A DNA stretch of 58,354 nt from the IMG/VR virus record IMGVR_UViG_3300046674_000414, positions 1 to 58,354 of that record. One strand, 5' to 3'. Origin of the DNA: a virus. Shown here in pieces: positions 10,364 to 48,377 of this stretch; the stretch's first letter is position 1; each line of letters starts with the position of its first letter. The translations under genes and the position numbers were made by a program. Under the pieces are notes generated by a model. It ran no database searches and was not told the origin of the DNA. It saw only the letters and a program-made list of their open reading frames with translations.

Positions 10364-13300
10364 GTGGCCGGTCCCGGTGGCGTCCTCGTCGGACGCGGAT
10401 ACGTGTCGATCCGGCCCGAGTTCGAGGGCAACTGGTCCCGCTCCGTCAACGCCCGCGCCTCCAGCGCGGGCAGCGCCGGCGCTGGCGCCTTCAGTAAGGC
10501 GTTCGGGGTCGGCCTCAAGGGGATCGGCGCGCTCGCGGGCGTAGCTATCGCGGCGAACCTCAACGCCACCGCCGCCGGTGCGGCCGTCCTGGCGCCCGCA
10601 CTGACGACCGCCGCTGCCGCCGCGGGCGCGCTCAAGCTGGGTCTGTCCGGTGTCGGTGACGCGTTCAAGGCGGCGTTCGCCGACGGTGGTGCGGACGCGA
10701 AGGCGGCGGCCTCGGCGACGAAGGCCGTCGAGGGTGCTCAGCGCGGGCTGGCGAACGCCCAGCGGGCGCTCGCGCAGGCACGCGTGGACGCGGCCAAGCG
10801 CGTCCAGGACGCGCAGCGTGGCGTCCTGGACGCCGAGCGGGACTTGGCGGACGCCCAGCGGGATGCCCGTGATGTGCAGGCGGACCTCAACTCCGCACGC
10901 GTGGAGGCGATGCGGGCGCTGGAGGACATGAACCTGCGCCTGGAGCAGTCGCAGCTGGACGAGCGCGACGCCGTCCTGCGACTGACCGAGGCACAGAAAG
11001 ACCTCACCACCGCGCAGGCGAACCCCGGCACGACGCCGGAACAACTGGCGAAGATCCAGCTCGCCTACGACAAGGCCGCACTGAACCTGCGAGAGCAGCG
11101 CAGCGAGACGAAGCGGCTGACCGACGACACCAAGGCCGCGAACAAGGCCGGCGTCGAGGGAAGTGCCCAAGTCGTCGCGGCGAAGAAGAAGATCTCCGAC
11201 GCGAACGAGACGGTCGCCGACAAGGAGCGCGCGCTCTCGGACGCCCAGCGGGGCGTGGCTGAGGCGCGCGCGGATGGCGCCCGGCAGGTCGCCGACGCAC
11301 AGCGGGCCGTCGCGGACGCTGCGGCGGCCGTCGCGGATGCGCAGGCGGCTGCGGCGGCACAGACATCGCAGCTCGACGAGGCGATGTCCAAGCTGGCGCC
11401 GAACGCGCGGAGTTTCGTCTCCGCGATTCAAGGGCTCGCGCCGGCTTGGACGGACATGCGCCTGTCGGTGCAGAACGCCCTCTTCCAGGGCCTGGACGCC
11501 ACGGTCACGCAGCTCGGCCGTACGACGATCCCGATCCTGAAGCGGCAGCTGACCGGCACCGCAAGCGTCTGGAACGACATCGCGAAGAGCGCGGCGTCCG
11601 GCATCCAGGAGATGGCCAAGTCAGGACTCCTCGACAAGATCCTTTCGGGTGCGACGACGAACCTCGCGGCGTTCAAGGACACCCCGAAGCAGATCCTCAC
11701 CGCGTTCGGCCAGCTCTCGGTCGCCGCGCAGCCTGCGTTCAACCGGCTCCTGACCCAGTTCACCGGGGCGATCAAGTCGTTCACCGACGGCATCGCCAAG
11801 AGCTTCGAGTCGGGCGGTCTTCAGCAGGCCATCGACACCGCGTTCCAGATCCTGTCCGGATTCGGAACCCTCCTCGGCAACGTCCTCGGCGTCGTCTCAC
11901 AGATCTTCAAGGCCGCCGCCGACGCGGGCGGCCAGATCGTCGGCGTGCTCGGAACCGTCTTCGGCGAGATCAAGAAGATCCTCGCGGCGCCCGCCATGCA
12001 GGCCACGCTGAGGCAGCTGTTCACGTCGATCGCGCAGATCGTCGGCGCGCTCGTGCCTGTCATCGGCAGCATCGTGCAGGCGATCGTGCCGCTCATCGCG
12101 GCGCTTGCCCAGCCGATCACCGAACTCGCCGTCGTCCTCGGCCCGGTCCTGACCCAGCTCGTCTCCGTGCTGGGCGCCGCCCTGATGCCGGTCATCAAGG
12201 CGCTCATGCCGGTCCTGGTGCAGGTGGGCACAGCGATCGTGGAGATCGTCCGCGCGGTCATGCCCCTGCTTCAGCCGATCGCCGACCTGATCGCCGGGGT
12301 CATTCTCGCGCTCGCGCCCGCACTGACACCGATCATCGCGGTCATCCAGCAGATCGTCGCCGTACTCATTGGCCCGCTCTCCCGGATCGTCAAGGCACTC
12401 ACGCCGGTCCTGGTGCAGGTCGGCGGAATCATTGCCCAGGTGTTCCAGGCGCTGGAGCCGTTTCTAGCGCCGCTGGTCAGCCTGCTCGGGCAGGTCGCCG
12501 AACTCGTTGCGAAGGTGTTCGCGGCCGCGCTGGGGCAGCTCATGACCGCGCTCAAGCCGCTCCTGCCGATCGGCATGCGCCTGATCAACGAGGTGTTCGG
12601 CGCGCTCACGCCGATCCTGCCCGTGCTGAGCGATGCCATCAGCGTGATCGTGGATGCGTTCCTGTCGATGGTCGGCCCCCTCGGGCAGGCGTACTCCGGC
12701 CTGGCCCAGAAGCTCCTGCCGGTCGTGACGAAGCTCCTGCCGGTCATCGGGGACCTGGCGGGCATCTTCGTGGACGCCCTCGCGGACGTGCTGCCAGTGC
12801 TGGCCGACGCGTTCCTGAAGCTAGTGGCTGCGGTCGTGCCGATTCTGCCGATGCTCGGCGATCTCCTCGGGCTGGCTCTGTCGGTGTCGGTCGGGCTGAT
12901 TGTGCAGTTGCTGCCGTCGCTGGTCGACCTCATCAAGGCGGTTGTGGACCTGGCGGTCGCTCTGGTGCCGATTCTGCCTCCGCTCGCCGAACTGATCGGC
13001 CTGGTGGTGGAGCTTGCGGTCCGTGTCCTGAACTGGCTGCTGCCGCCGCTGTTGAGCCTGGCGAAGTTCCTGATCGGCGGAGTGGCCAAGGCTCTTTCGA
13101 CGGTGATCGGCTGGGTGACCGGCCTCGTCAAGGTGGCCTCCGGCCTGATCGGCTGGGTGGCACGCCTGGGTTCGGCGTTCACTGGACTGCGGGACAAGTC
13201 CATCTCGGCGTGGAACGGGATCAAGAACGGCATCGGGAGCGCCTGGGCGTGGATCAGGCAGAACGTCCTGTCGCCGATCGGTACGTTCTTCACCAAGACG

Positions 13301-14710
13301 ATTCCGGGCTGGGCGGCCACCCTGAAGAACAAGATGGTCGGCGCGTTCGACGCCGCGCGGGCAGGCATCAAGACCGCCTGGGACAAGATCAAGGGAATCG
13401 CCCGGGAGCCCATCCAGTACGTCGTCGACATCGTCTACAACAGGGGCATCGTCGGCGTCTGGAACAAGATCGCGGGCGCGTTCGGCGCGCCCAAGCTGGC
13501 CACCTACAAGTTCGCCCGGGGCGGCATCCTTCCTGGCTACACGCCGGGCCGCGATCCGCACCGGTTCTACTCGCCCACGGGCGGGGCGCTGGAGATGTCC
13601 GGCGGTGAGGCCATCATGCGGCCGGAGTTCACCCGCGGCGTGGGTGCCGGTTTCGTCGGCTACTTCAACCGGCTCGCGAAGAGCCGCGGCGCGGCCGGGG
13701 TCCGGGCGGCTCTGGCGCCGGTCCTCGGCGGGAACCCGGACACGCCGGTCGACCGCTCCCTGCGTTACGCCGACGGCGGGGTGGCGCAGCGCTTCGCGGA
13801 TGGCGGGATTTTCGGCTGGATCAAGAACGCCGGGTCGGCCGTGCTGGGTGCGGGATCGGCGGCGTGGAACAAGGTCAAGGAGGGCGCAAGCTGGCTGACC
13901 GACCTGCTGGAGTCGTCCGCGCGCGCGGGCGTGACGCACGTCGTCGACCCGCTCCTGCGGTCGTTCCCCGGCATGTCCACGGGGTTCGGCCAGATGCTGC
14001 GCCGCATTCCGTCCAGGATGATCGACGCCCTGTTCGGCTACAGCAAGGAGGCCGACAAGCAGGGCGGCGGCGGCCTCGGCGGCCCGAAGATCCAGGCGGC
14101 GCTTCGGTGGGCGAAAACCCAGAATGGGTTGCCGTACCAGTGGGGCGGCAACGGCAACCCCAGCTGGGACTGCTCCGGCCTGATGTCGGCGATCGAGTCC
14201 GTCCTCCGCGGGGAGAAGCCGCATCGCCGCTGGTCGACGCACGCGTTCTCCGGGAAAACAGCGCCCCCCGGCTGGGTGTACCACGGCAACAGCCCGTTCC
14301 GCGTTGGAATCACCGCGGCCGGCGTCGGGCACACGGCGGGCACGCTCGGCGGCACGAAGGTCGAGTCGCGCGGTGGTGACGGTGTGGCCGTCGGCAACAG
14401 GGCCCGCGGCTACAACGACAAGTTGTTCACCTCGTGGTACGGCTTCAAGCCGGGGTCGTATGACTCGGGCGGCTACCTCCAGCCCGGGTTCAACCTCGCC
14501 TACAACGGCACGGGCAGGCCGGAGCCGGTGTTCACGACGGCGCAGGCCAACGCGCTCACCTCGCTCGCGGCGCAGGCCCAGACCGGTCCGGCGCAGTTCG
14601 AGGGCGACCTGTACCTCGACTCGGGCGAACTCCTCGGCGTGGTCCGGGGCGTGATGGATCAGCGGGACCGCCAGCTCGTATCGACCCTGCGCGCCGGCCG
14701 GAAGGGGTGA
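10364..14710 (+). CDS. Tape measure protein with C-terminal NlpC/P60-like peptidase domain
   Basis: 1448 aa with a long Ala/Leu/Val-rich helical core. Near the C-terminus: LPYQWGGNGNPSWDCSGL...GHTAG. Confidence 0.9.
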   Translation: MAGPGGVLVGRGYVSIRPEFEGNWSRSVNARASSAGSAGAGAFSKAFGVGLKGIGALAGVAIAANLNATAAGAAVLAPALTTAAAAAGALKLGLSGVGDAFKAAFADGGADAKAAASATKAVEGAQRGLANAQRALAQARVDAAKRVQDAQRGVLDAERDLADAQRDARDVQADLNSARVEAMRALEDMNLRLEQSQLDERDAVLRLTEAQKDLTTAQANPGTTPEQLAKIQLAYDKAALNLREQRSETKRLTDDTKAANKAGVEGSAQVVAAKKKISDANETVADKERALSDAQRGVAEARADGARQVADAQRAVADAAAAVADAQAAAAAQTSQLDEAMSKLAPNARSFVSAIQGLAPAWTDMRLSVQNALFQGLDATVTQLGRTTIPILKRQLTGTASVWNDIAKSAASGIQEMAKSGLLDKILSGATTNLAAFKDTPKQILTAFGQLSVAAQPAFNRLLTQFTGAIKSFTDGIAKSFESGGLQQAIDTAFQILSGFGTLLGNVLGVVSQIFKAAADAGGQIVGVLGTVFGEIKKILAAPAMQATLRQLFTSIAQIVGALVPVIGSIVQAIVPLIAALAQPITELAVVLGPVLTQLVSVLGAALMPVIKALMPVLVQVGTAIVEIVRAVMPLLQPIADLIAGVILALAPALTPIIAVIQQIVAVLIGPLSRIVKALTPVLVQVGGIIAQVFQALEPFLAPLVSLLGQVAELVAKVFAAALGQLMTALKPLLPIGMRLINEVFGALTPILPVLSDAISVIVDAFLSMVGPLGQAYSGLAQKLLPVVTKLLPVIGDLAGIFVDALADVLPVLADAFLKLVAAVVPILPMLGDLLGLALSVSVGLIVQLLPSLVDLIKAVVDLAVALVPILPPLAELIGLVVELAVRVLNWLLPPLLSLAKFLIGGVAKALSTVIGWVTGLVKVASGLIGWVARLGSAFTGLRDKSISAWNGIKNGIGSAWAWIRQNVLSPIGTFFTKTIPGWAATLKNKMVGAFDAARAGIKTAWDKIKGIAREPIQYVVDIVYNRGIVGVWNKIAGAFGAPKLATYKFARGGILPGYTPGRDPHRFYSPTGGALEMSGGEAIMRPEFTRGVGAGFVGYFNRLAKSRGAAGVRAALAPVLGGNPDTPVDRSLRYADGGVAQRFADGGIFGWIKNAGSAVLGAGSAAWNKVKEGASWLTDLLESSARAGVTHVVDPLLRSFPGMSTGFGQMLRRIPSRMIDALFGYSKEADKQGGGGLGGPKIQAALRWAKTQNGLPYQWGGNGNPSWDCSGLMSAIESVLRGEKPHRRWSTHAFSGKTAPPGWVYHGNSPFRVGITAAGVGHTAGTLGGTKVESRGGDGVAVGNRARGYNDKLFTSWYGFKPGSYDSGGYLQPGFNLAYNGTGRPEPVFTTAQANALTSLAAQAQTGPAQFEGDLYLDSGELLGVVRGVMDQRDRQLVSTLRAGRKG

Positions 14711-22111: not shown

Positions 22112-22149
22112 GACGGATGCGCCCCTCCCGGAGGAGGGGCGCATCCGTC
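22112..22149. terminator. Bidirectional stem-loop terminator
   Basis: Perfect 17-bp stem GACGGATGCGCCCCTCC / GGAGGGGCGCATCCGTC with a 4-nt loop, between convergent operons. Confidence 0.8.
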
Positions 22150-22336: not shown

Positions 22337-22591
22337 TCACTCTCCCGCGGTGAACTTCCCATCTCGACGAGGGGCTCCGTGCCGCCCTTTGCCCGGCCGT
22401 ACGGCGTGCGCGGCGCGCACTTCGTCGGCGTCGTAGAGGGCGTGGGCGCGGCCCTGTGCGTCGATCTGCCGCTCGACGGCGCGCACGCCCCACCGGGACA
22501 GGGTGCCGCGTGCGCTCCCCGGCTGGATGCCGAGGTGCGCGGCGACCTCCCGGATGGTCCACAGGCCGTCTGTTCTGGCAGGGTCGGTCAC
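22337..22591 (-). CDS. Helix-turn-helix DNA-binding protein
   Basis: 84 aa. LWTIREVAAHLGIQPGSARGTLSRWG is HTH-like. Confidence 0.65.
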   Translation of the reverse strand: MTDPARTDGLWTIREVAAHLGIQPGSARGTLSRWGVRAVERQIDAQGRAHALYDADEVRAAHAVRPGKGRHGAPRRDGKFTAGE

Positions 22592-22869
22592 AGGTCCAGG
22601 TCCCCGGCCGCCTCGTCGGCGAACTCCTGGACGCGCTGCACGGCGTCGAGGATCTCCTCGTCGTCGGGGTCCTCACCGGTGACGTGATCGATGAGGGTCG
22701 TGCGGGTGGCGACGATGCGGGTGGCGTGAACGTAGGCTTCGTCCCGCACGTCCAGCTCCCAGTCGCCGCCCTCGTCGTCGGGCCCCTCCTTGTAGTAGAG
22801 GACGGGATGCTCGGCGGGCGAGTCGAAGAGCTGGTGGATGTGGTGGGCGGTGACGGTGACGATGGACAT
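22588..22869 (-). CDS. Hypothetical acidic protein
   Basis: 93 aa, Asp/Glu-rich. RBS AGGGGGG. ATGA overlap with the next gene. Confidence 0.65.
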   Translation of the reverse strand: MSIVTVTAHHIHQLFDSPAEHPVLYYKEGPDDEGGDWELDVRDEAYVHATRIVATRTTLIDHVTGEDPDDEEILDAVQRVQEFADEAAGDLDL

Positions 22870-26976: not shown

Positions 26977-27004
26977 TGATCGTTTGGTCGATATTTGGTA
27001 GATC
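26977..27004 (+). repeat. attP arm repeat, copy 2
   Basis: TGATCGTTTGGTCGATATTTGGTAGATC. Overlaps the integrase stop codon. Confidence 0.7.
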
Positions 27005-28298
27005 AACTCGCGCAGTGCTTCCGGAGGTTCACCCGGCCCCACATAGTGCTCATCCCCAGGTTACCCATGGCCCGCCAGAACGTCTCCTCCAGGCCGTCCA
27101 GCCGTTCGGCGCGCATCGAAGGTGTCGGCTTCTGGTAGTGCCGCTTGATGCCCGGCCGCTTATGCCCGGCCGCCTCGAACGCCAGAGGCTCCTTCACCCC
27201 GAGCTCCGACTGCATCGTGTCGTGCAGCGCACGCAACGCCCGCATGTCCAGACCCGGCAGGATCGGCTCCCACGCCGCCCGGTACGCCACCCCCTGCCGC
27301 TTCTCGCGCGCGTCGCGGCCGTCGGCCGCCGGCCGGAAAATGCGCGACCAGTTCCCACGCCGCCACGGCTGCCCCGACGGGGTGCAGAAAATCCGCGCAT
27401 GCGGCCAGTCGGCGAGGTGGTGCCGGATCAGTGTCGCAAGGAACGGCGGCACGTCCACGTCCCGGGTTGAGCCGTCGTTCTTCGTAGGCTCCAGGCGGAT
27501 GGTGTAGCCCTTCTTGCTGCCGTCCTCGTCGCGCTCCTGGTACTCGGCGAACTCCTCTTTGATCCGGATGATCGGGCACACGAACTCGCCCGCGCCCCAC
27601 GGCTGCCGCCGAATCAGCAGCGTGTTGTCCCGATGCAGCCCGAGGCCCTCGCCCCACCGGGGCCCGAGGAACGCCGTCGTCAGCACCCACATGCCGATGG
27701 CCGGCCCGAGCCGCTCCGCCAGGAGGACGGCATCCTCCGGACGTGGGCCGCCGTCCCGCTCGATCTTCGGCGGCTTCATCCACCCCGCGTCGCCCGCCGT
27801 CTCCTTCGTACGCCTGCGCCCGAAGAGCGGGTTCACGGTCACGTACCCGGCGTCCACGGCCGCGGTCATGATGGTCGACATCAAGCTCACCGCGTGCCCG
27901 CGGCTGACGTCCTCGCAGGGCATCGTCTGCTGCCAGGTGTCGACGTCGAACCACGAGATCTTCCGGAGGGGGACGGCGCCCCATCGGGGCAGGATGTCGT
28001 TCTCCAGCCTGTCCCACCGCCTGCTGCCCGTCGCGCCCCGCTTCTTGCGTGACGCCATGAAGGTGCGCGAGAAACTTCCGAACGTCGTGTTGACCTTGTC
28101 CGGGTCGATCCACGTCCCCTCCCGGATCGCCCGCTCCTGCGCCTCCCCCCACTCGATGGCCGCCGTCTTCGTAGGGAATCCGGACTCCGACAGCCACTCC
28201 AGGGCGTGCCCCTCCGGAGCCTTATACAGGACCCGCCAGGTGAACTGCTTCGTCTCTTTACCGTTGCGCATCTTGTAGCGCTTCGTCGCATGAGCCAT
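27003..28298 (-). CDS. int: Tyrosine integrase
   Basis: 431 aa from ATG 28298 (RBS GGAGGGGGGAAG; the 497-aa ORF extends further upstream). SAM-like N-domain and C-terminal catalytic region ...LHDTMQSELG...GHKRPGIKRHY. Next to attP. Confidence 0.9.
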   Translation of the reverse strand: MAHATKRYKMRNGKETKQFTWRVLYKAPEGHALEWLSESGFPTKTAAIEWGEAQERAIREGTWIDPDKVNTTFGSFSRTFMASRKKRGATGSRRWDRLENDILPRWGAVPLRKISWFDVDTWQQTMPCEDVSRGHAVSLMSTIMTAAVDAGYVTVNPLFGRRRTKETAGDAGWMKPPKIERDGGPRPEDAVLLAERLGPAIGMWVLTTAFLGPRWGEGLGLHRDNTLLIRRQPWGAGEFVCPIIRIKEEFAEYQERDEDGSKKGYTIRLEPTKNDGSTRDVDVPPFLATLIRHHLADWPHARIFCTPSGQPWRRGNWSRIFRPAADGRDAREKRQGVAYRAAWEPILPGLDMRALRALHDTMQSELGVKEPLAFEAAGHKRPGIKRHYQKPTPSMRAERLDGLEETFWRAMGNLGMSTMWGRVNLRKHCAS

Positions 28299-28332
28299 GA
28301 GGTCTTCCCCCCTCCGCGTTGCCTCGCCGGGG

Positions 28333-28743
28333 CTACGCCGACCGCCTGATGGAGTAGCTGGCCGGCGAGCGAGCCCACCACGGCGAGCGCTCGGACTGGT
28401 GTTGCGTGATGTAGTGGGCGCCGCGCTCGCTGATGAGGTCCGCGCGCACCGTGTAGGCGATGTACTCGGAGTGGTCGTCGACCGCGACGGCGACACCTCC
28501 GCCCATCACCTCTTGCCGCTCCATTGTGATGGGAATGCGTGGCCCAAGTGGTACGCCAGGCGGCCGGGGGTGCCAGCGTCGCGCCTGCTGCGTGAACAGC
28601 TCGACGAAGACGGGTACACCCTCATCACTGATGTCGTCGTAGTGGAAGTGGAAGCGGCATCCGCTTCCGTCTTCGTAGTCCTCGATCCAGGGCGTGAAGT
28701 ATTTCTCGCCCTGAGCGTGTCTCTTGACCTCGATCGTGAGCAT
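28333..28743 (-). CDS. Hypothetical protein between repressor and integrase
   Basis: 136 aa. Visibly less GC-rich stretch. No family recognised. Confidence 0.6.
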   Translation of the reverse strand: MLTIEVKRHAQGEKYFTPWIEDYEDGSGCRFHFHYDDISDEGVPVFVELFTQQARRWHPRPPGVPLGPRIPITMERQEVMGGGVAVAVDDHSEYIAYTVRADLISERGAHYITQHQSERSPWWARSPASYSIRRSA

Positions 28744-34362: not shown

Positions 34363-34844
34363 GCAGGCGTGCGATCCGCCCCCAGGTCGACCACCAGCAG
34401 GCTGCTGCCGCGCTCCGGGCCCGGCCCGGGGTGTGGCTGACGGTCGCCGAGTACCGCAACGCCGACACCGTCCGATCCATCAGGGACCGCATCCGCACCG
34501 GGCAGCACGACGTCGGCCGCTGGTACCAGCCCGCCGGCGCCTACGAGACCCGCACCGCCCTCACCGACGACGGCACCCTCCTGGAAGCCCGCTACCTGCC
34601 GGAGGCCCGCTACCACCCGGCCCGCCGCCGTACCCCGCCCGTCGCCACGATGCTCGCGCAGACCGACGCCGCCCGCGTCCTCGGGCAGATCGACCGCCGC
34701 GAGGTCGTCGCCGGGCCGGAGGGTGCCCGTCGGATCGCCGCCCGCCACCAGGCCGCCTACGGCGACGTGTGGAACGACGACGCCGACAACGACCAGGCGT
34801 GGGCCGACGCCATCGACAGCATCAGCGCGGGCGGTGGCGCGTGA
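34359..34844 (+). CDS. Hypothetical protein
   Basis: 161 aa. GTGA overlap. Confidence 0.6.
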   Translation: MSRRAIRPQVDHQQAAAALRARPGVWLTVAEYRNADTVRSIRDRIRTGQHDVGRWYQPAGAYETRTALTDDGTLLEARYLPEARYHPARRRTPPVATMLAQTDAARVLGQIDRREVVAGPEGARRIAARHQAAYGDVWNDDADNDQAWADAIDSISAGGGA

Positions 34845-35695
34845 CGACCGCTATCGAAGCCCCGCAGATCGTGGACGGGTTGTCGGCCGAGTCGTACCAC
34901 GGTGATAGATCCTCGATCTCCTCCTCCGGACTCCGCGCGCTCCTCGCCCCGGGCTGCCCCGCCCAGTTCAAGTACGACCGCGACCATCCGGCCGCGCCGA
35001 AGCGGGAGTTCGACCTCGGGCACGCCGCGCACCTGATGGTGCTGGGCGAGGGCCCCGAGTTGAAGGTCGTCGACTTCCCGGACTGGCGGAAGAAGGACGC
35101 CCAGACCGAGCGCGACGAGGCGTACGCCGCCGGGCAGGTCCCTCTCCTCGCCAAGGACCACGGCATGGTCCAGGAGATGGTCGCCGCAATCCGCCGGCAT
35201 CCCGTCGCCGGGCCGCTGTTCACCCCTGGCGCGGGCGTCGCCGAGCAGTCGATCTACTGGACCGATCCGGCGACCGGAGTGCGCTGCCGCTGCCGTCCCG
35301 ACTGGATGCCGCGTCGCCGCGACGGCCGTCTCGTCGTCGTCGACTACAAGACCGCCAAGGCGGTCGACCCGGAGGCGCTCGCCAAGGCCGTGTACGAACG
35401 CGGCTACCACGCACAGGCCGCGTTCTACCTCGCGGGAGTCAAGGCCGCCGGGTTGCACGGCGATCAGGAGCCCGCGTTCGTCTTCGTCTTCCAGTCGAAG
35501 ACAGCGCCGTACCTGGTGCACCTTGTCGAACTCGACTTCCCCGCGCTCGCCCTCGGCGCCGCGCGGAACGAACGGGCCCTGCGGATCTACGCCGAGTGCC
35601 AGCGCACCGGCATCTGGCCGGGCTTCAACGACGCCATCACCTACCTGCCGCTGCCGCCCTGGGCGGAGAAGCGCGACGAACAGGAGTACCTGTGA
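34841..35695 (+). CDS. PD-(D/E)XK exonuclease (RecE/Cas4-like)
   Basis: 284 aa. RPDW...RLVVVDYKTAK (D..D-x-K) and YHAQAAFY motifs. Coupled to an annealing-protein gene. Confidence 0.75.
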   Translation: MTTAIEAPQIVDGLSAESYHGDRSSISSSGLRALLAPGCPAQFKYDRDHPAAPKREFDLGHAAHLMVLGEGPELKVVDFPDWRKKDAQTERDEAYAAGQVPLLAKDHGMVQEMVAAIRRHPVAGPLFTPGAGVAEQSIYWTDPATGVRCRCRPDWMPRRRDGRLVVVDYKTAKAVDPEALAKAVYERGYHAQAAFYLAGVKAAGLHGDQEPAFVFVFQSKTAPYLVHLVELDFPALALGAARNERALRIYAECQRTGIWPGFNDAITYLPLPPWAEKRDEQEYL

Positions 35696-37224: not shown

Positions 37225-37466
37225 TGGTCAGCGGAGGCAACTTTCGCGGCGGCGGGTTCGCCATCCCCGCGGACAACCCCGACATCCGCCGACGGGCCGC
37301 CCTGTATGTCGCCGGTATCGCCCGCGACGCGGCCGACGCCCGACAACTCCTCGACGCGCTCGGCCTCCTCGAAGCCCCCGCGCCCGCGCGCCGGAAGCGA
37401 ACCGACCCACCGACCACGACCACCACCGACTGCCCCATCAACACCCGCACGAGGAGGGACTCGTGA
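37224..37466 (+). CDS. Hypothetical protein
   Basis: 80 aa. ATGA overlap. Confidence 0.5.
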   Translation: MVSGGNFRGGGFAIPADNPDIRRRAALYVAGIARDAADARQLLDALGLLEAPAPARRKRTDPPTTTTTDCPINTRTRRDS

Positions 37467-37765
37467 CCCGCATCGTCCACACCGCGACCGTCCCGGACAC
37501 GGCTGAACGGCCGGGTGCCTGGAGGGAGTCGGCGGTCTGCGCGGGTGTCGACCCCGAGCTGTTCTTCCCGGCCAAGGGTGACGCCTACGCGGCCTCCAGG
37601 GCCCGCCGGATCTGTGCGGCCTGCCCAGTCCGTATGGAGTGCCTGGAGGACGCCCTCCAGCGCGAGGCGGGGCGCGGCTTCCAGAGCAGGCACGGCATCG
37701 TCGGCGGGCTGGGCCCGAGGAAGCGCTACGACCTGAACGTCGCCCGCCGCAAGGCCGCCGCGTGA
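37463..37765 (+). CDS. WhiB-like transcription factor
   Basis: 100 aa. Four Cys in the WhiB arrangement (C..22..C-x2-C-x5-C) followed by GIVGG. Confidence 0.85.
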   Translation: MTRIVHTATVPDTAERPGAWRESAVCAGVDPELFFPAKGDAYAASRARRICAACPVRMECLEDALQREAGRGFQSRHGIVGGLGPRKRYDLNVARRKAAA

Positions 37766-38052
37766 TCGCCGTCTGCACGCACTGGATCGGCAGTGAGCGC
37801 CGTCACTGCGGGGCGACGGACGGGGTGCGCCGGTACGTCAACAGCACCGTGTGCCCCGCGCATACCCCGTCCGCGCTCGCCGGGCGTCCGGAACCCGAGC
37901 CGGGCCCGGGGATGCCGGCCGCCGCCTGGGCGACCGCGTCGCCGATCTCCGACTCCCGTGTGCACGACCAGCGGGCCATCGCGAGCGGGAAGCGCCGGGC
38001 CAGCCCGCACACCTACAAGGCGGCACGCGCCGCCATCGACAAGACCATCTGA
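37762..38052 (+). CDS. Hypothetical protein
   Basis: 96 aa. GTGA overlap. Confidence 0.55.
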   Translation: MIAVCTHWIGSERRHCGATDGVRRYVNSTVCPAHTPSALAGRPEPEPGPGMPAAAWATASPISDSRVHDQRAIASGKRRASPHTYKAARAAIDKTI

Positions 38053-38060
38053 GGAGACCG

Positions 38061-38387
38061 ATGAACATCACCAACCCGACCCGGCCGCTCTTCGGCCCCG
38101 GCCGCGTCCTTCTCGGCTATGAGGATCAGGAGTGGGCGGTGTGGGTGTCCGGCATGGACGAACTCCACGACGCCGACACCCTGGACGCCGCGCTGGAACT
38201 GGCGGGCGAACTGAACGGGACCTTCGCGCAGCTCCGCTACAACGCGCCCGGCCTCGACGACCCGTCGTACGTCCTCGGCGCGGTCGTCCTCCGCCACGGC
38301 TACGCGTGGACCGCCGCCACCGAACACCGCCTCGGACTCGCCTGCGGCAAACCCGACTGCGACTCCTGCCCGACACCGACCACCTGA
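38061..38387 (+). CDS. Hypothetical protein
   Basis: 108 aa. RBS GAGGAGACC. Confidence 0.6.
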   Translation: MNITNPTRPLFGPGRVLLGYEDQEWAVWVSGMDELHDADTLDAALELAGELNGTFAQLRYNAPGLDDPSYVLGAVVLRHGYAWTAATEHRLGLACGKPDCDSCPTPTT

Positions 38388-38395
38388 CCCGACAA

Positions 38396-38420
38396 CCCCG
38401 CCGCGCTGCTTGCGGCGGGG
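38396..38420 (+). terminator. Stem-loop
   Basis: 9-bp stem CCCCGCCGC / GCGGCGGGG with a 7-nt loop. Confidence 0.5.
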
Positions 38421-38440
38421 CCCGCCCCAAGGAGACCACG

Positions 38441-38887
38441 ATGACCGACCACCCGTACACCGACGACGACCTCCGCGCCGAAGCCGCCCGCCAGCACTCC
38501 TCTCTCACCGAGGACCCCGACTTCATGGGCGTCGGCGAGCAGATGGAGGACCGCTATGCCCAGTCGACCGTCATCGACGAGGACCCCGACTTCGAGCGGG
38601 AAGGCAGCACATGGGGGGAGCTGCTGCCGTACAACCACGACGACGGCAACGCCTACAACGAGGCGCAGCGGAAGATCCACAACCTGATCAACGGCGCCGC
38701 CGACGTGTCCCGGTGGGCCGTCGACCTCGGCGCCGACGGGCTGGAGCCCTCGCCCGACGTCCTCAACCTGGACGGCGACAACGGCCCCTTCATCCGCGTG
38801 CACTTCGCCTTCGACCCGGCCATGCCCGAGCGCGAACGCCAGCGCTTCTCCCTCGGCCTCGCCCAGGTCATCGCGGACGCCCTCTAG
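38441..38887 (+). CDS. Highly acidic hypothetical protein
   Basis: 148 aa with a very high Asp/Glu content. RBS AAGGAGACC. Flanked by stem-loops. Confidence 0.7.
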   Translation: MTDHPYTDDDLRAEAARQHSSLTEDPDFMGVGEQMEDRYAQSTVIDEDPDFEREGSTWGELLPYNHDDGNAYNEAQRKIHNLINGAADVSRWAVDLGADGLEPSPDVLNLDGDNGPFIRVHFAFDPAMPERERQRFSLGLAQVIADAL

Positions 38888-38922
38888 CCACCCTCCCTGG
38901 CGGCCGTCCCCCACGGCTGCCA

Positions 38923-38959
38923 CCCCGGGAGCCCGCACTTCCCCGACGGGCTCCCGGGG
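38923..38959 (+). terminator. Stem-loop terminator
   Basis: Perfect 13-bp stem CCCCGGGAGCCCG / CGGGCTCCCGGGG with an 11-nt loop. Confidence 0.6.
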
Positions 38960-38983
38960 CCCCGACTACCGCGAAAGGGCTCC

Positions 38984-39364
38984 GTGATGAGCGTGTACTT
39001 CCACGGCGGATACCCCGGTCTCAAGCCCGGCGACCTGATCCTGCCGCCCGACCTGTCGGGTACCGACCACCGCCTGTCGCGCACTGCGGCCGAACTCGGC
39101 GGCCCCGCCTACTCGACCCGCACGGACGTCGTCTACGTGACGACGGGCCGCGATGTGGCCCGCGCGTTCGCCGCGTTCTACCCCGACGGCGCCCTCTACC
39201 GGGTCCATCCGCACGGCGACCTGGAGCCCGACCCCGACAGCGGCATCCCCGGCCTGTCGTGGCAGTGCCCGACAGCCGAAGTGATCGCGGTCGTCGACCC
39301 GGCCGTCCTGTTCCGCACACGCCGCCCGGAGCGGTGGGTCCGGATGCTCACACCCACCGACTGA
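38984..39364 (+). CDS. Arr-like (rifampin-type) ADP-ribosyltransferase
   Basis: 126 aa. YFHGGYPGLKPGDLI, VVYVTTGRDVARAFA and YRVHPHGDLEPDPD parallel the FYHGT / IYFS / IVEPTG..EDDP blocks of mycobacterial Arr as I recall them. Confidence 0.6.
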   Translation: MMSVYFHGGYPGLKPGDLILPPDLSGTDHRLSRTAAELGGPAYSTRTDVVYVTTGRDVARAFAAFYPDGALYRVHPHGDLEPDPDSGIPGLSWQCPTAEVIAVVDPAVLFRTRRPERWVRMLTPTD

Positions 39365-39397
39365 CCACAGCACGCAGCCCCGCGCAGGAGAACGACC

Positions 39398-39646
39398 GTG
39401 ACCGCTCAGCAACCCATCGACGCCCTCCTCGACGCGTACGTGGACCAACGCAGCGCCCTGCGCCGCGTACTCGCCCTCGTCGCCTGCCACGCAGACGAAA
39501 TCGCCGCAGACCCCGCCCTCGTCCTCAAGGCCCTGGACGCCCACCCCAGGTGCGTCGCCATCTGCCCGCCCGGATGCACCGGCGACTGCGAACCCCACCG
39601 CGCCGTCTGGGAGCGCTACACCGCCCTCGACCCCAGCCGCAGCTAG
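39398..39646 (+). CDS. Hypothetical protein
   Basis: 82 aa. GTG after GCAGGAGAA. Confidence 0.55.
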   Translation: MTAQQPIDALLDAYVDQRSALRRVLALVACHADEIAADPALVLKALDAHPRCVAICPPGCTGDCEPHRAVWERYTALDPSRS

Positions 39647-39660
39647 CCGCACACGACACA

Positions 39661-39679
39661 GCCCCGCACACGGCGGGGC
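39661..39679. terminator. Bidirectional stem-loop
   Basis: GCCCCGC-ACACG-GCGGGGC, between convergent genes. Confidence 0.5.
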
Positions 39680-39696
39680 CGGAAGGAGGAGGGGTG

Positions 39697-39888
39697 TCAG
39701 GAGTCGGCGATGTTCTTCGCGGCGGCGACATCGCGCTGGCGCTTCCGCCATGCGTTGACCTCGCGGACGACGTACATGCGGATGTCTGCGGCGCGCGCAA
39801 TGCCCTTCTCCTTGCACGCCTTCTCGTAGTCGGACCACACGTCGTCCCCGATGCGGACCATGCGGCCGGTCGTCCCCTTCGTCGTCAT
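39697..39888 (-). CDS. Ribbon-helix-helix (Arc/CopG-like) protein
   Basis: 63 aa. MVRIGDDVWSDYEKACKEKGIARAADIRMYVVREV fits strand-helix-helix. Lone minus-strand gene. Confidence 0.65.
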   Translation of the reverse strand: MTTKGTTGRMVRIGDDVWSDYEKACKEKGIARAADIRMYVVREVNAWRKRQRDVAAAKNIADS

Positions 39889-39940
39889 GTCGACAGGGTA
39901 GCCGACCGTTCATCGGCAACACACCCCACTCGACCTGCGC

Positions 39941-39988
39941 GTATTGCTTATGTATTGCGGGTGACTGTACACCCCGAGGTAAGATTGC
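39941..39988. promoter_or_regulatory. Tandem GTATTGC repeats and putative replication-operon promoter
   Basis: GTATTGC at 39941 and 39952 (11-bp phasing). GATTGC at 39983. TTGCGG-N19-TAAGAT on the + strand. Confidence 0.45.
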
Positions 39989-40073
39989 GATCACGTCAGG
40001 CGAGCGAAAGGCCGCCCTGAAAGGGGGTCTGGTTCCTCATGCCCTGACCAGCACGACCGAGAAGAGATCGCAC

Positions 40074-41102
40074 GTGAGAATCCGGCGCAGCAGGCCGACG
40101 GGAGACTTCCTACAAGTCCCCAACGCCACCGTGCGGGACGACCGACTCAGCCACATGGCGCGCGGCATCCTCGTCGAACTCCTCAGCCGCCCCGACGGCT
40201 GGGAGGCGACCGCCGACGACATATGGCGCGCATCGGTCGCGAAGCACGGAAAGGCAAGCCCCGGCCGCCGCGCCTTCCGCGCCGCCTTCGCCGAGCTCAA
40301 GGATCACGGGTACCTCACGTCCGAACGCACCGTCCTCGCCGGAGGTCAGCACGGCACCGTGCTCGCCGTATCCGACATTCCCGCAGGTGGCACCGACGTA
40401 CCACCTGCCGGTACGTCGGTGCCACCTGCGAAGACGGACGTTTCCCCAGCTCAGTCCGACGTACCACACGCTGGTACGTCGGAAGGGGCCTCCGACGTAC
40501 CACGCGCTGGTACGTCGGAGCGACCTGCGGAAACACCCGAAACGCCAGCTCGCGCCGACGTACCACCTGCCGGTACGTCGGACTCGCCTGCGGAAACAAC
40601 CAAAACCGCAGGTCGCTCCGACGTACCACACGCTGGTACGTCCTCTTATAAACACGGTGAGAACACGGAGGGGAACACGTCCTCCCCCCCCCCCCCCCCG
40701 CAGCGGCAGGAAGACGAGGACGAAGACCTCACCGTCTTCGGAGCGTTCTGGGTCACCTTCCCCAAGAGCCGCGACCGCCCGGCCACCCTCGCCGCCTGGC
40801 GCAACGCCATCGCCAAAGGCGCCGACCCCAAGAAGATCGTCGAAGCCGCCCAGGCGTACGCCCGCGAACGCGCCGGTGAAGAACCCCGCTTCACCAAGTT
40901 CTCCGCCAACTGGCTGCGCGACGAACGCTACGAAGACGACTACGCGCAGCCCGAGCCGGGCGGCCTCCCCCAACTCCGCGCGCTCCCCAGCCCCCGCCAC
41001 ATCACCACCCGCGAGGACGCCGCCCTCGCCAAACGCAACGCCTCCCGCGCCCTCCTCGACCAGCTCGCCGACCAACTCCGCGCATCAGGAGACAACCAGT
41101 GA
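40074..41102 (+). CDS. Replication initiator / replisome organiser with internal origin repeats
   Basis: 342 aa. N-terminal winged-helix-like domain (FLQVPNATVRDDRLSHMARGILVELLS). Central SDVPxAGTS repeats are encoded by iterons. Confidence 0.7.
   Translation: MRIRRSRPTGDFLQVPNATVRDDRLSHMARGILVELLSRPDGWEATADDIWRASVAKHGKASPGRRAFRAAFAELKDHGYLTSERTVLAGGQHGTVLAVSDIPAGGTDVPPAGTSVPPAKTDVSPAQSDVPHAGTSEGASDVPRAGTSERPAETPETPARADVPPAGTSDSPAETTKTAGRSDVPHAGTSSYKHGENTEGNTSSPPPPPQRQEDEDEDLTVFGAFWVTFPKSRDRPATLAAWRNAIAKGADPKKIVEAAQAYARERAGEEPRFTKFSANWLRDERYEDDYAQPEPGGLPQLRALPSPRHITTREDAALAKRNASRALLDQLADQLRASGDNQ
40393..40643. repeat. Five 27-bp palindromic iterons (candidate ori)
   Basis: CCGACGTACCAC-NN-GC-N-GGTACGTCGG at 40393, 40456, 40492, 40555 and 40618 (the last is imperfect). 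Followed by TCTTATAAACA. Confidence 0.75.
40684..40699 (+). repeat. C16 homopolymer tract inside the initiator gene
   Basis: 16 consecutive C counted. Encodes part of SSPPPPPQ. Confidence 0.95.
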
Positions 41103-48254: not shown

Positions 48255-48327
48255 TCGGCCCCCGGCATATCCTGTGGCCGCCGGCCTGCCGTAACGCTCT
48301 GGCGGCACGCCGGCGCTGCTACAACGC

Positions 48328-48362
48328 GAAGCCCCGCCTCAACTCCACTGAGGCGGGGCTTC
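48328..48362. terminator. Bidirectional stem-loop terminator
   Basis: Perfect 14-bp stem GAAGCCCCGCCTCA / TGAGGCGGGGCTTC with a 7-nt loop, between convergent genes. Confidence 0.8.
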
Positions 48363-48377
48363 GTTGCGTGCGCGGGG

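Follow-up and report, generated by a model that had tools for sequence, protein, structure and literature searches.

An Arr-Like ADP-Ribosyltransferase Gene and an Unrelated Acidic Protein Gene in the Variable Tail of an Early Operon of a Temperate Streptomyces Siphophage

Introduction

The Arr enzymes, mono-ADP-ribosyltransferases of the PF12120 superfamily that modify rifamycins, are the closest described relatives of a small protein encoded in the IMG/VR virus record IMGVR_UViG_3300046674_000414, the whole of which (58,354 bp) is designated here as the window. Rifamycin-modifying Arr proteins share an HGT motif (100% of them), an S[NH][YF] motif and the residues Y49 and D84, and the contacts with rifampin (RIF) have been assigned to RIF site 1 (residues 87-95), RIF site 2 (residues 126-133, with the motif M[RK][DE]xL) and the hydrophobic residues F9, F39, A139 and I141 (PMC6092378, PMC8492726). 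All of the PF12120 enzymes tested modify rifamycins, including the divergent Arr-X, which acts on these antibiotics even though its cleft is only partly conserved (PMC8492726, PMC13246000). With respect to phages, Iyer et al. 2022 named Microbacterium and Gordonia phages, together with Sinorhizobium phage PBC5, as carriers of rifampin-transferase-family enzymes, and proposed as their targets rifamycin-like antibiotics or, alternatively, diffusible anti-viral compounds (PMC9503650). The window harbors a gene of this type, open reading frame (ORF) B, at positions 38987..39364 of the + strand, next to ORF A (38441..38887, + strand), which encodes a strongly acidic protein, and both genes and their surroundings are compared below with these and other described systems.

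The window is a new, complete-looking, metagenome-derived temperate Streptomyces siphophage. ORF A and ORF B are probably best understood as two unrelated cargo genes lodged in one slot of an early operon, ORF B being a catalytically intact Arr-like transferase of a phage branch and ORF A an independent cargo gene. As it stands, the locus represents an ordinary mosaic region of accessory genes, and the Arr-like gene type it contains has already been annotated and discussed in the literature.

Fold and Catalytic Residues of ORF B

ORF B consists of 125 residues and is a member of phrog_17296 (E 3e-42) and of the phage 'HGG' clade of Arr-like proteins. A GTG codon at 38984 offers an alternative start leading to a 126-residue version; this longer reading, adopted in a preliminary description made from the sequence, does exist and contains the four residue blocks quoted there, but the homologues begin at ATG 38987, which is the most likely start. 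The homologue P0001, 99% identical to ORF B, also comprises 125 residues. The residue numbers used below for ORF B (H7, Y51 and D83) follow the 126-residue version.

Profile and structure comparisons show that ORF B possesses the Arr fold together with the H-Y-D catalytic residues. When a profile of the ORF B family (45 sequences) was run against all PDB sequences, exclusively Arr entries were retrieved, 2HW2 and 9IAF with an E-value of 0.0019 and Arr-2 more weakly, and the profile alignment places H7, Y51 and D83 of ORF B on H19, Y49 and D84 of Arr-ms. An hhalign comparison with a canonical Arr profile, built from five sequences of annotated plasmid genes, gave a probability of 95.2% (E 2.5e-8) over 107 columns. 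The AlphaFold2 model of ORF B, with a predicted local distance difference test (pLDDT) score of 92.7 and a predicted template modeling (pTM) score of 0.86, retrieved 2HW2 (E 3e-6) and 9IAF (E 9e-6) from the PDB in a Foldseek search, with a probability of 1.0 and template modeling (TM) scores of 0.54-0.61, all other PDB matches having E-values >0.1; the next ones in rank were cholera-toxin A chains, which are ADP-ribosyltransferases as well. The parallel with the H-Y-D blocks of Arr that had been drawn from the letters of the sequence is thus borne out by the profile alignment, and the resemblance holds for the fold as well as for the catalytic residues. Among the clade representatives, H7 is kept in 140 of 142, Y51 in 125 (with phenylalanine in 14 others) and D83 in 139. 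ORF B further resembles Arr-ms in its size (125 residues vs 143) and in the preserved 'YxVEPxGxxExDP' strand and loop.

The relationship is nonetheless a distant one. The identity between ORF B and Arr is about 22%, the Pfam Arr-ms model is matched with 16.2 bits (E 0.012), under its gathering cut-off of 25, and no NCBIfam match occurs at E<=1. Another Pfam match of ORF B under the cut-off, 'Optomotor-blind' (E 0.009), was discarded as a chance match, and single-sequence PDB matches to designed repeat proteins and to green fluorescent protein were rejected as sums of weak repeats.

The Acceptor Side of ORF B

In contrast to the catalytic residues, most of the residues by which Arr-ms contacts rifampin have been deleted or replaced in ORF B, or fall beyond the ends of the protein. 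ORF B reads HGG where Arr has HGT, and the glycine G9 is invariant in all of the 142 clade representatives. The S[NH][YF] loop on the NAD (nicotinamide adenine dinucleotide) side is exchanged for a segment that exceeds it by 13 residues and for which three short helices are predicted; S32 aligns, and the window reads S-R-T. In RIF site 1, a 6-residue deletion apparent from the hhalign alignment removes T88-P93, including K90, K91 and L92. At the extremities, ORF B starts after the position of F9 and stops before those of L133, A139 and I141, its end falling within helix alpha2, and a threonine occupies the position of L130. Among the residues of the rifampin site, equivalents are kept only for P96 (P89), S99 (S92) and M126 (M121). 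Across the clade, the C-terminal helix is not conserved, whereas the NAD+ core represented by FHGG..PGL..GD, VVY and ALYxVxPxGxxEPDPD is nearly invariant. Judging from these alignments, the acceptor side of ORF B appears to be remodeled to such an extent that rifampin could hardly bind as it does in 2HW2. Owing to the missing N-terminal arm, the 13-residue insertion, the 6-residue deletion in the rifampin loop and the end within helix alpha2, the acceptor of ORF B is probably bound in another way than rifampin is by Arr-ms.

These features bear directly on the proposal, put forward in the preliminary description, that an Arr-like enzyme of the phage could confer rifamycin tolerance on a lysogen. 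With most of the rifampin contacts lost, rifamycins become doubtful as a substrate, and since the gene resides in an early lytic operon, the tolerance of a lysogen becomes doubtful too. A genuine rifamycin-inactivating Arr, which would protect the host RNA polymerase needed by the phage from the rifamycins of neighboring actinomycetes, would nevertheless agree with the 'straightforward interpretation' of Iyer et al. 2022 (PMC9503650). It would also agree with Arr being the nearest relative of ORF B and the only significant one in structure and profile searches, with the conservation of the catalytic triad in the clade, with the rifamycin activity of every PF12120 enzyme tested (metagenomic Arr-wd1 to Arr-wd4 included, besides Arr-X), with the soil actinomycetes, among them an Amycolatopsis, that host the clade, and with the retained equivalents of M126, P96 and S99. 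However, the low identity and the sub-threshold or missing family matches, the uniform replacement of HGT by HGG, the truncated RIF site 1, the lost hydrophobic contacts, the lack of conservation of the C-terminal helix across the wider clade and the translational packing of the gene in early lytic operons rather than in lysogeny modules all speak against it, and this explanation is considered unlikely. ORF B also differs from the known Arr genes in being encoded in a phage early operon, instead of being a chromosomal or integron resistance gene.

As regards the acceptor itself, a macromolecular target belonging to the host or to its defenses is a plausible candidate, to be held tentatively; a small molecule other than a rifamycin is possible but somewhat doubtful, a rifamycin-type ansamycin is improbable, and a loss of all activity of ORF B would be quite surprising. 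The consequences would differ accordingly to the acceptor. If the clade truly modifies rifamycins, temperate phages of soil actinomycetes would carry an antibiotic-inactivating enzyme that is missed by the hidden Markov models used for resistance genes, because the protein lies under both the Pfam and the NCBIfam cut-offs. If the loss of the pocket means another acceptor, the clade would represent a widespread and unstudied phage ADP-ribosyltransferase acting in host takeover or in the neutralization of chemical or enzymatic defenses.

Distribution and Previous Descriptions of the Phage Arr-Like Clade

An exhaustive HMMER search delineated an Arr-like clade that numbers 1,221 cluster representatives (50% identity) at E<=1e-3, with 616 remaining at E<=1e-10, and 97 of the 142 clade representatives match the Pfam Arr-ms model at E<=0.01. 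The clade spans actinobacterial and some proteobacterial phages, and its hosts are soil actinomycetes, including an Amycolatopsis (P0104). By tblastn, ORF B matches gp70 of Streptomyces phage TurkishDelight (55% identity, E 2e-27) and proteins of Gordonia phages (16 records, approximately 40% identity, E 1e-10 to 3e-14). Sinorhizobium phage PBC5 (37%), an Arthrobacter phage and 24 records of Microbacterium phages contain homologues as well. In addition, 50 IMG/VR loci hold a homologue of ORF B, and most of the loci found in genomes share most of their neighbors with viral contigs.

Most of these phage homologues already carry the annotation 'ADP-ribosyltransferase' (SEA-PHAGES, e.g., TurkishDelight gp70), and they resemble ORF B in their early-region context near a WhiB gene; what distinguishes the present case is the explicit documentation of the lost rifampin-contact residues. 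A literature search yielded no experimental paper on a phage member of the clade.

The clade also displays some architectural variety, as seen among representatives such as P0338, P0308 and P0300. In some members the Arr-like domain occurs inside DUF5131 (phage Gp37/Gp68 family) proteins or is fused to a NUDIX domain, and in others the NAD-side loop has a CxxC insertion or zinc motifs of the SEC-C or Lar type are present.

ORF A and Its Family

ORF A encodes an acidic protein of 148 residues (38441..38887, + strand) belonging to the uncharacterized family phrog_34277 (E 1e-65). The gene is preceded by a strong ribosome-binding site, AAGGAG, read from the sequence at 38429..38434 of the + strand, 6 nucleotides ahead of its ATG. 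With 20 Asp and 12 Glu against 1 Lys and 10 Arg, the protein has a net charge of -21 and a computed pI of 4.20; the extreme richness in Asp and Glu that had been reported for it is therefore confirmed, and the strings quoted as examples (DDDLRAE, EDPDF, DEDPDFERE and YNHDDGN) are all present. Among the 89 called genes of the window, ORF A ranks first in absolute net charge and third from the bottom in pI (median 6.15). Its base composition is typical of this phage, with a G+C content at third codon positions (GC3) of 0.96.

The family comprises at least 582 clusters at 90% identity, nearly all from Streptomyces genomes or metagenomes, and tblastn against 50,697 phage genomes gave no match, so that none of the sequenced phage isolates in this collection carries it. 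Acidity is a property of the whole family, the net charge ranging from -29 to -13 with a median of -21, and 11 positions are acidic in >=80% of the members. Besides these, the non-acidic residues Y6, T7, Q18, W58, S90 and W92 are invariant. The AlphaFold2 model (pLDDT 85, pTM 0.69) predicts a mixed alpha/beta fold that opens with a long helix at the N-terminus, continues with a variable acidic loop, two helices and a beta-hairpin, and closes with a helix at the C-terminus.

Small and strongly acidic proteins encoded among the early genes of phages are well represented by Ocr (T7 gp0.3) and ArdA, and ORF A resembles them in all three respects. It might accordingly be regarded as a DNA-mimic anti-restriction or anti-defense protein, produced abundantly early in infection from a transcript stabilized or terminated by hairpins, an idea with which the charge of the family, the strong ribosome-binding site, the recurrent downstream hairpin described below and the presence/absence polymorphism of an early-operon accessory gene are all in keeping. 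In contrast to Ocr and ArdA, however, ORF A exhibits no sequence, profile or fold similarity to these proteins: Pfam, which covers the ocr and ArdA families, gave no match at E<=1, the NCBIfam and PDB profile searches were equally without match, no Pfam domain occurs in longer homologues of about 160-235 residues, and the confident model found no PDB match with Foldseek (best E ~1). DNA mimics vary in fold, so that the missing fold match lowers the likelihood of membership without excluding the function. Moreover, the charge density of ORF A, -0.14 per residue, is lower than that of Ocr, which amounts to about -0.24 per residue, other proteins of the window are equally or more charge-dense, and several invariant residues, aromatic and polar, point to a specific partner protein. 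A DNA-mimic function would, for these reasons, seem rather unlikely. As a family, the acidic ORF A proteins still offer a tractable candidate for a new anti-defense decoy in Streptomyces phages.

Another acidic protein of the window is encoded by a minus-strand ORF of 93 residues (22588-22869), situated between the tail/lysis region and the integrase gene. It has a net charge of -19, 25.8% of Asp plus Glu, a pI of 4.15 and a charge density above that of ORF A, and it matches neither Pfam nor PADLOC.

Stem-Loops Bordering ORF A

Three hairpins, which are the sole perfect short-loop inverted repeats within 37700-40100, border ORF A on the + strand. The upstream one (38396..38420), a GC-rich stem of 10 bp with a loop of 5 nucleotides, has a folding energy of -22.9 kcal/mol (z -1.96) and is borderline when taken alone, 7 of 200 shuffled sequences being as stable. 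Downstream, two adjacent GC-rich hairpins occupy 38898-38922 and 38923-38959, the first of which had been overlooked in the preliminary description; the 96-nucleotide gap that contains both (38888-38983) folds with -54.3 kcal/mol (z -4.99), and none of 200 shuffled sequences did as well. The two stem-loops reported earlier, at 38396-38420 and 38923-38959, are thus real, but their designation as terminators bracketing the gene calls for caution: no T-run follows any of the three hairpins, and a consensus terminator scan of the locus found nothing. The double hairpin (38898-38959) may act as an attenuator, a terminator or a stabilizer of the 3' end. The stem sequence of the hairpin at 38923-38959 was found in no other fetched locus except a second metagenome contig (L001), whose gene set is that of the window.

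Hairpins of this kind recur in the family of ORF A. Within 100 nucleotides downstream, a hairpin of <=-25 kcal/mol occurs in 58% of the 69 non-redundant ORF A loci vs 19% of 498 background genes (Fisher p 6e-11), and upstream hairpins were found in 22% of the loci vs 8% of the background (p 0.0014). The downstream stems, of 11-14 bp, are GC-rich, differ in sequence from one locus to another and are followed by a C/A-rich sequence devoid of any U-tract. No such enrichment was detected among the relatives of ORF B. The recurrence of the downstream hairpins indicates that the ORF A gene tends to lie where a transcript ends or is attenuated; such a placement is compatible with an abundantly expressed terminal gene and does not by itself reveal a function. 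An integron-like reading of the hairpins as attC sites was rejected, since no integron integrase is present, the boundaries of the exchanged segment coincide with codons instead of lying inside the repeats, and the stem at 38923-38959 recurs in L001 alone.

The Swap Site in a Streptomyces acidiscabies Prophage

The organization of the slot is best appreciated by comparison with a prophage of Streptomyces acidiscabies (CP122560, locus L141), which contains an ORF B 99% identical to that of the window and lacks ORF A. In blastn alignments, the left flank (window 37780-38446, L141 4621-5287) is 92% identical and the right flank (window 38888-39386, L141 5902-6400) 97.6% identical. Homology ends 6 nucleotides into ORF A, at 38446, and restarts at 38888, the first base past the stop codon. 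The corresponding slot of the prophage (L141 5282-5901) is filled with two other small acidic ORFs of 96 and 109 residues, with a net charge of -10 each. The flanks conserved in the two phages include all three hairpins as well as the ribosome-binding site. ORF A is thus a presence/absence cassette with boundaries exactly at its start and stop codons.

Mosaicism of the Hendrix type, and the morons described in connection with it, provide the obvious comparison, to the extent that ORF A is exchanged between conserved flanks with hairpins at both junctions. It differs from a moron in that no promoter could be detected, in that its base composition is that of the phage, and in that the hairpins remain with the flanks when the cargo changes. 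A scan for sigma-70-like promoters between 36500 and 41500 found no site, although Streptomyces promoters are diverse and a consensus scan does not prove that a promoter is absent. The upstream hairpin stands 8 nucleotides ahead of the ribosome-binding site of ORF A and 20 nucleotides ahead of its ATG. From the earlier view of ORF A as an autonomous moron, the cassette and its sharp boundaries can be retained; its autonomy is not supported, in view of the negative promoter scan, the 8-nucleotide spacing and the occurrence of the same flanking hairpins around other cargo in L141. The swap is a case of classic gene-boundary mosaicism and does not demonstrate an autonomous unit made of a promoter, a gene and a terminator.

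Two minor features of the prophage locus may be mentioned. The upstream hairpin (38396-38420) and its counterpart at L141 5236-5261 differ by a loop inversion polymorphism, a 7-nucleotide loop sequence being reverse-complemented (GCTGCTT vs AAGCAGC). Relatives of the 109-residue protein of L141 (cluster 31) recur beside Arr-like genes elsewhere.

Linkage of the Two Genes

ORF A and ORF B are adjacent but do not form a linked unit. Among 62 examined loci with a relative of ORF B (12 from genomes and 50 from IMG/VR), ORF A occurs within 10 kb in a single distinct locus out of about 60, the window itself aside. This locus is a prophage of Streptomyces griseoviridis (L005, identical to L015), where the ORF A homologue lies downstream of ORF B, i.e., in the reverse order. 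Overall, the acidic gene is close by in only about 1 of 30 Arr-like loci. Conversely, only one of 72 ORF A loci, inspected with 6-kb flanks, contains an Arr-like gene, and it is again the S. griseoviridis prophage (L096, on the contig of L015). The neighbors of both genes are hypervariable, and WhiB alone recurs, 2-4 genes upstream.

These neighborhoods are difficult to reconcile with the counter-defense islet of both genes envisaged in the preliminary description, in which a DNA-mimic anti-restriction protein and a defense-targeting ADP-ribosyltransferase would cooperate. In its favor, the two genes are small, early and accessory, they are adjacent in the window and in L001, they lie near each other in the S. 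griseoviridis prophage, and, according to the locus tags, Streptomyces sp. JV185 has homologues of both at a distance of three genes. Nonetheless, the pairing is not conserved in either set of loci, the S. acidiscabies prophage keeps a 99%-identical ORF B without any ORF A, and PADLOC returned no match for either gene or for the neighbors of the pair, no other defense-related match being observed. The neighborhood data largely refute the islet, which is to be regarded as highly improbable. A toxin-antitoxin reading of ORF B was similarly rejected, on account of the hypervariable neighbors and of the prophage in which a 99%-identical ORF B occurs without the downstream 82-residue ORF.

Proposed Functioning of the Slot

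According to the reading preferred here, that of two unrelated cargo genes in an early-operon slot, the region between 38.0 and 39.7 kb would serve for the exchange of small accessory genes between related phages at exact gene boundaries, and ORF A and ORF B would merely happen to share it. ORF B would catalyze the NAD+-dependent mono-ADP-ribosylation of an acceptor in early infection. ORF A would be an independent cargo gene derived from a family of Streptomyces prophages, usually placed at a transcript end or close to it, before a strong hairpin lacking a U-tract; its product might, with little confidence, be viewed as an abundant protein acting stoichiometrically as a binder or decoy, perhaps by mimicking a nucleic acid. 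The hairpins, for their part, would be a property of the slot and not of ORF A. A more specific proposal, which can be advanced only tentatively, is that the HGG clade represents a minimal NAD+-dependent transferase devoted to a new acceptor, either a macromolecule of the host or of its defenses or an anti-phage metabolite of actinomycetes, instead of rifamycin resistance, and that, separately, ORF A founds a new family of acidic decoys or DNA mimics specific to the temperate phages of Streptomyces.

Several points weigh against this reading. The argument of the altered pocket is based on sequence and profile alignments and on predicted secondary structure, not on a superposed model with a ligand, and since equivalents of M126, P96 and S99 are kept, a hydrophobic pocket could persist. 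The activity and the acceptor of the phage clade members are inferred, and the uniform rifamycin activity of the PF12120 enzymes tested, up to the divergent Arr-X, would by default favor rifamycins more strongly than the weighting of acceptors proposed above. The hairpins, being devoid of a U-tract, may not terminate transcription. With respect to ORF A, a specific partner or a role as an enzyme would account for the invariant non-acidic residues better than generic DNA mimicry. Finally, the relatives of ORF B appear tightly packed, with background-like median gaps of -1 and -4 nucleotides, but these gap statistics are approximate because the genes of the related loci were called by a crude GC3-based method.

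Genomic Context and Additional Features of the Window

The window has a G+C content of 70% and, as deduced from PHROG matches, contains genes for a large terminase (580-2328), a portal protein, a major capsid protein and a tape-measure protein (10364-14710). The same matches point to an Ant-like anti-repressor, to a tyrosine-type integrase encoded on the - strand (27003-28496) and, at 40074-41102, to a replication initiator. Both ORF A and ORF B are located at the 3' end of a + strand early operon, in which 4-bp gene overlaps occur throughout from about 33.2 kb to 37.8 kb. Upstream of ORF A, this operon encodes a PD-(D/E)XK nuclease (34841-35695), a 272-residue protein of phrog_3657 (function unknown) and a WhiB regulator (37463-37765), and the region 38.0-39.7 kb is the variable tail that follows the recombination genes and WhiB. 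A megablast search of 37800-40100 against the 50,697 phage genomes gave no match. The sub-threshold Rfam matches within 37700-40100, consisting of Twister-P5 (23 bits vs a gathering threshold of 37.6) and a microRNA, were rejected.

The immediate neighbors of the two genes are small. On the left, a gene call of the + strand (38061..38387) corresponds to an acidic protein of 108 residues with a net charge of -9, without any Pfam or PHROG match, which lies in the left flank conserved around the swap site. On the right, directly after ORF B, the last + strand gene of the operon (39398..39646) encodes a Cys-rich protein of 82 residues with a CPPGCTGDCEPH motif; blastn shows it to be absent from the otherwise collinear S. 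acidiscabies prophage, and it is a second insertion/deletion cassette within the slot. Convergent with the operon and ahead of the replication-initiator gene, a minus-strand ORF of 63 residues (39697..39888), devoid of a Pfam match and conserved in L141 at 74%, marks the end of the transcription unit.

Within the replication-initiator gene, the segment 40378-40642 is composed of imperfect tandem units of 63 and 99 nucleotides, each of which holds inverted repeats of 21-24 nucleotides, e.g., CGCAGGTGGCACCGACGTACC / GGTACGTCGGTGCCACCTGCG, and which encode the repeated peptide 'DVPxAGTS'. As far as can be judged from its sequence, this array resembles a replication origin of the iteron type lying inside the initiator gene. 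Right at the left-hand tip of the contig, ahead of the gene 111-617 that precedes the large terminase, a GC-rich palindrome (2-33) may be related to a genome end or to a cos site. Two other perfect GC-rich hairpins, at 22112-22149 and 48327-48363, with stems of 17 bp and 15 bp, respectively, and loops of 4-7 nucleotides, are likely to be further transcript-end structures.

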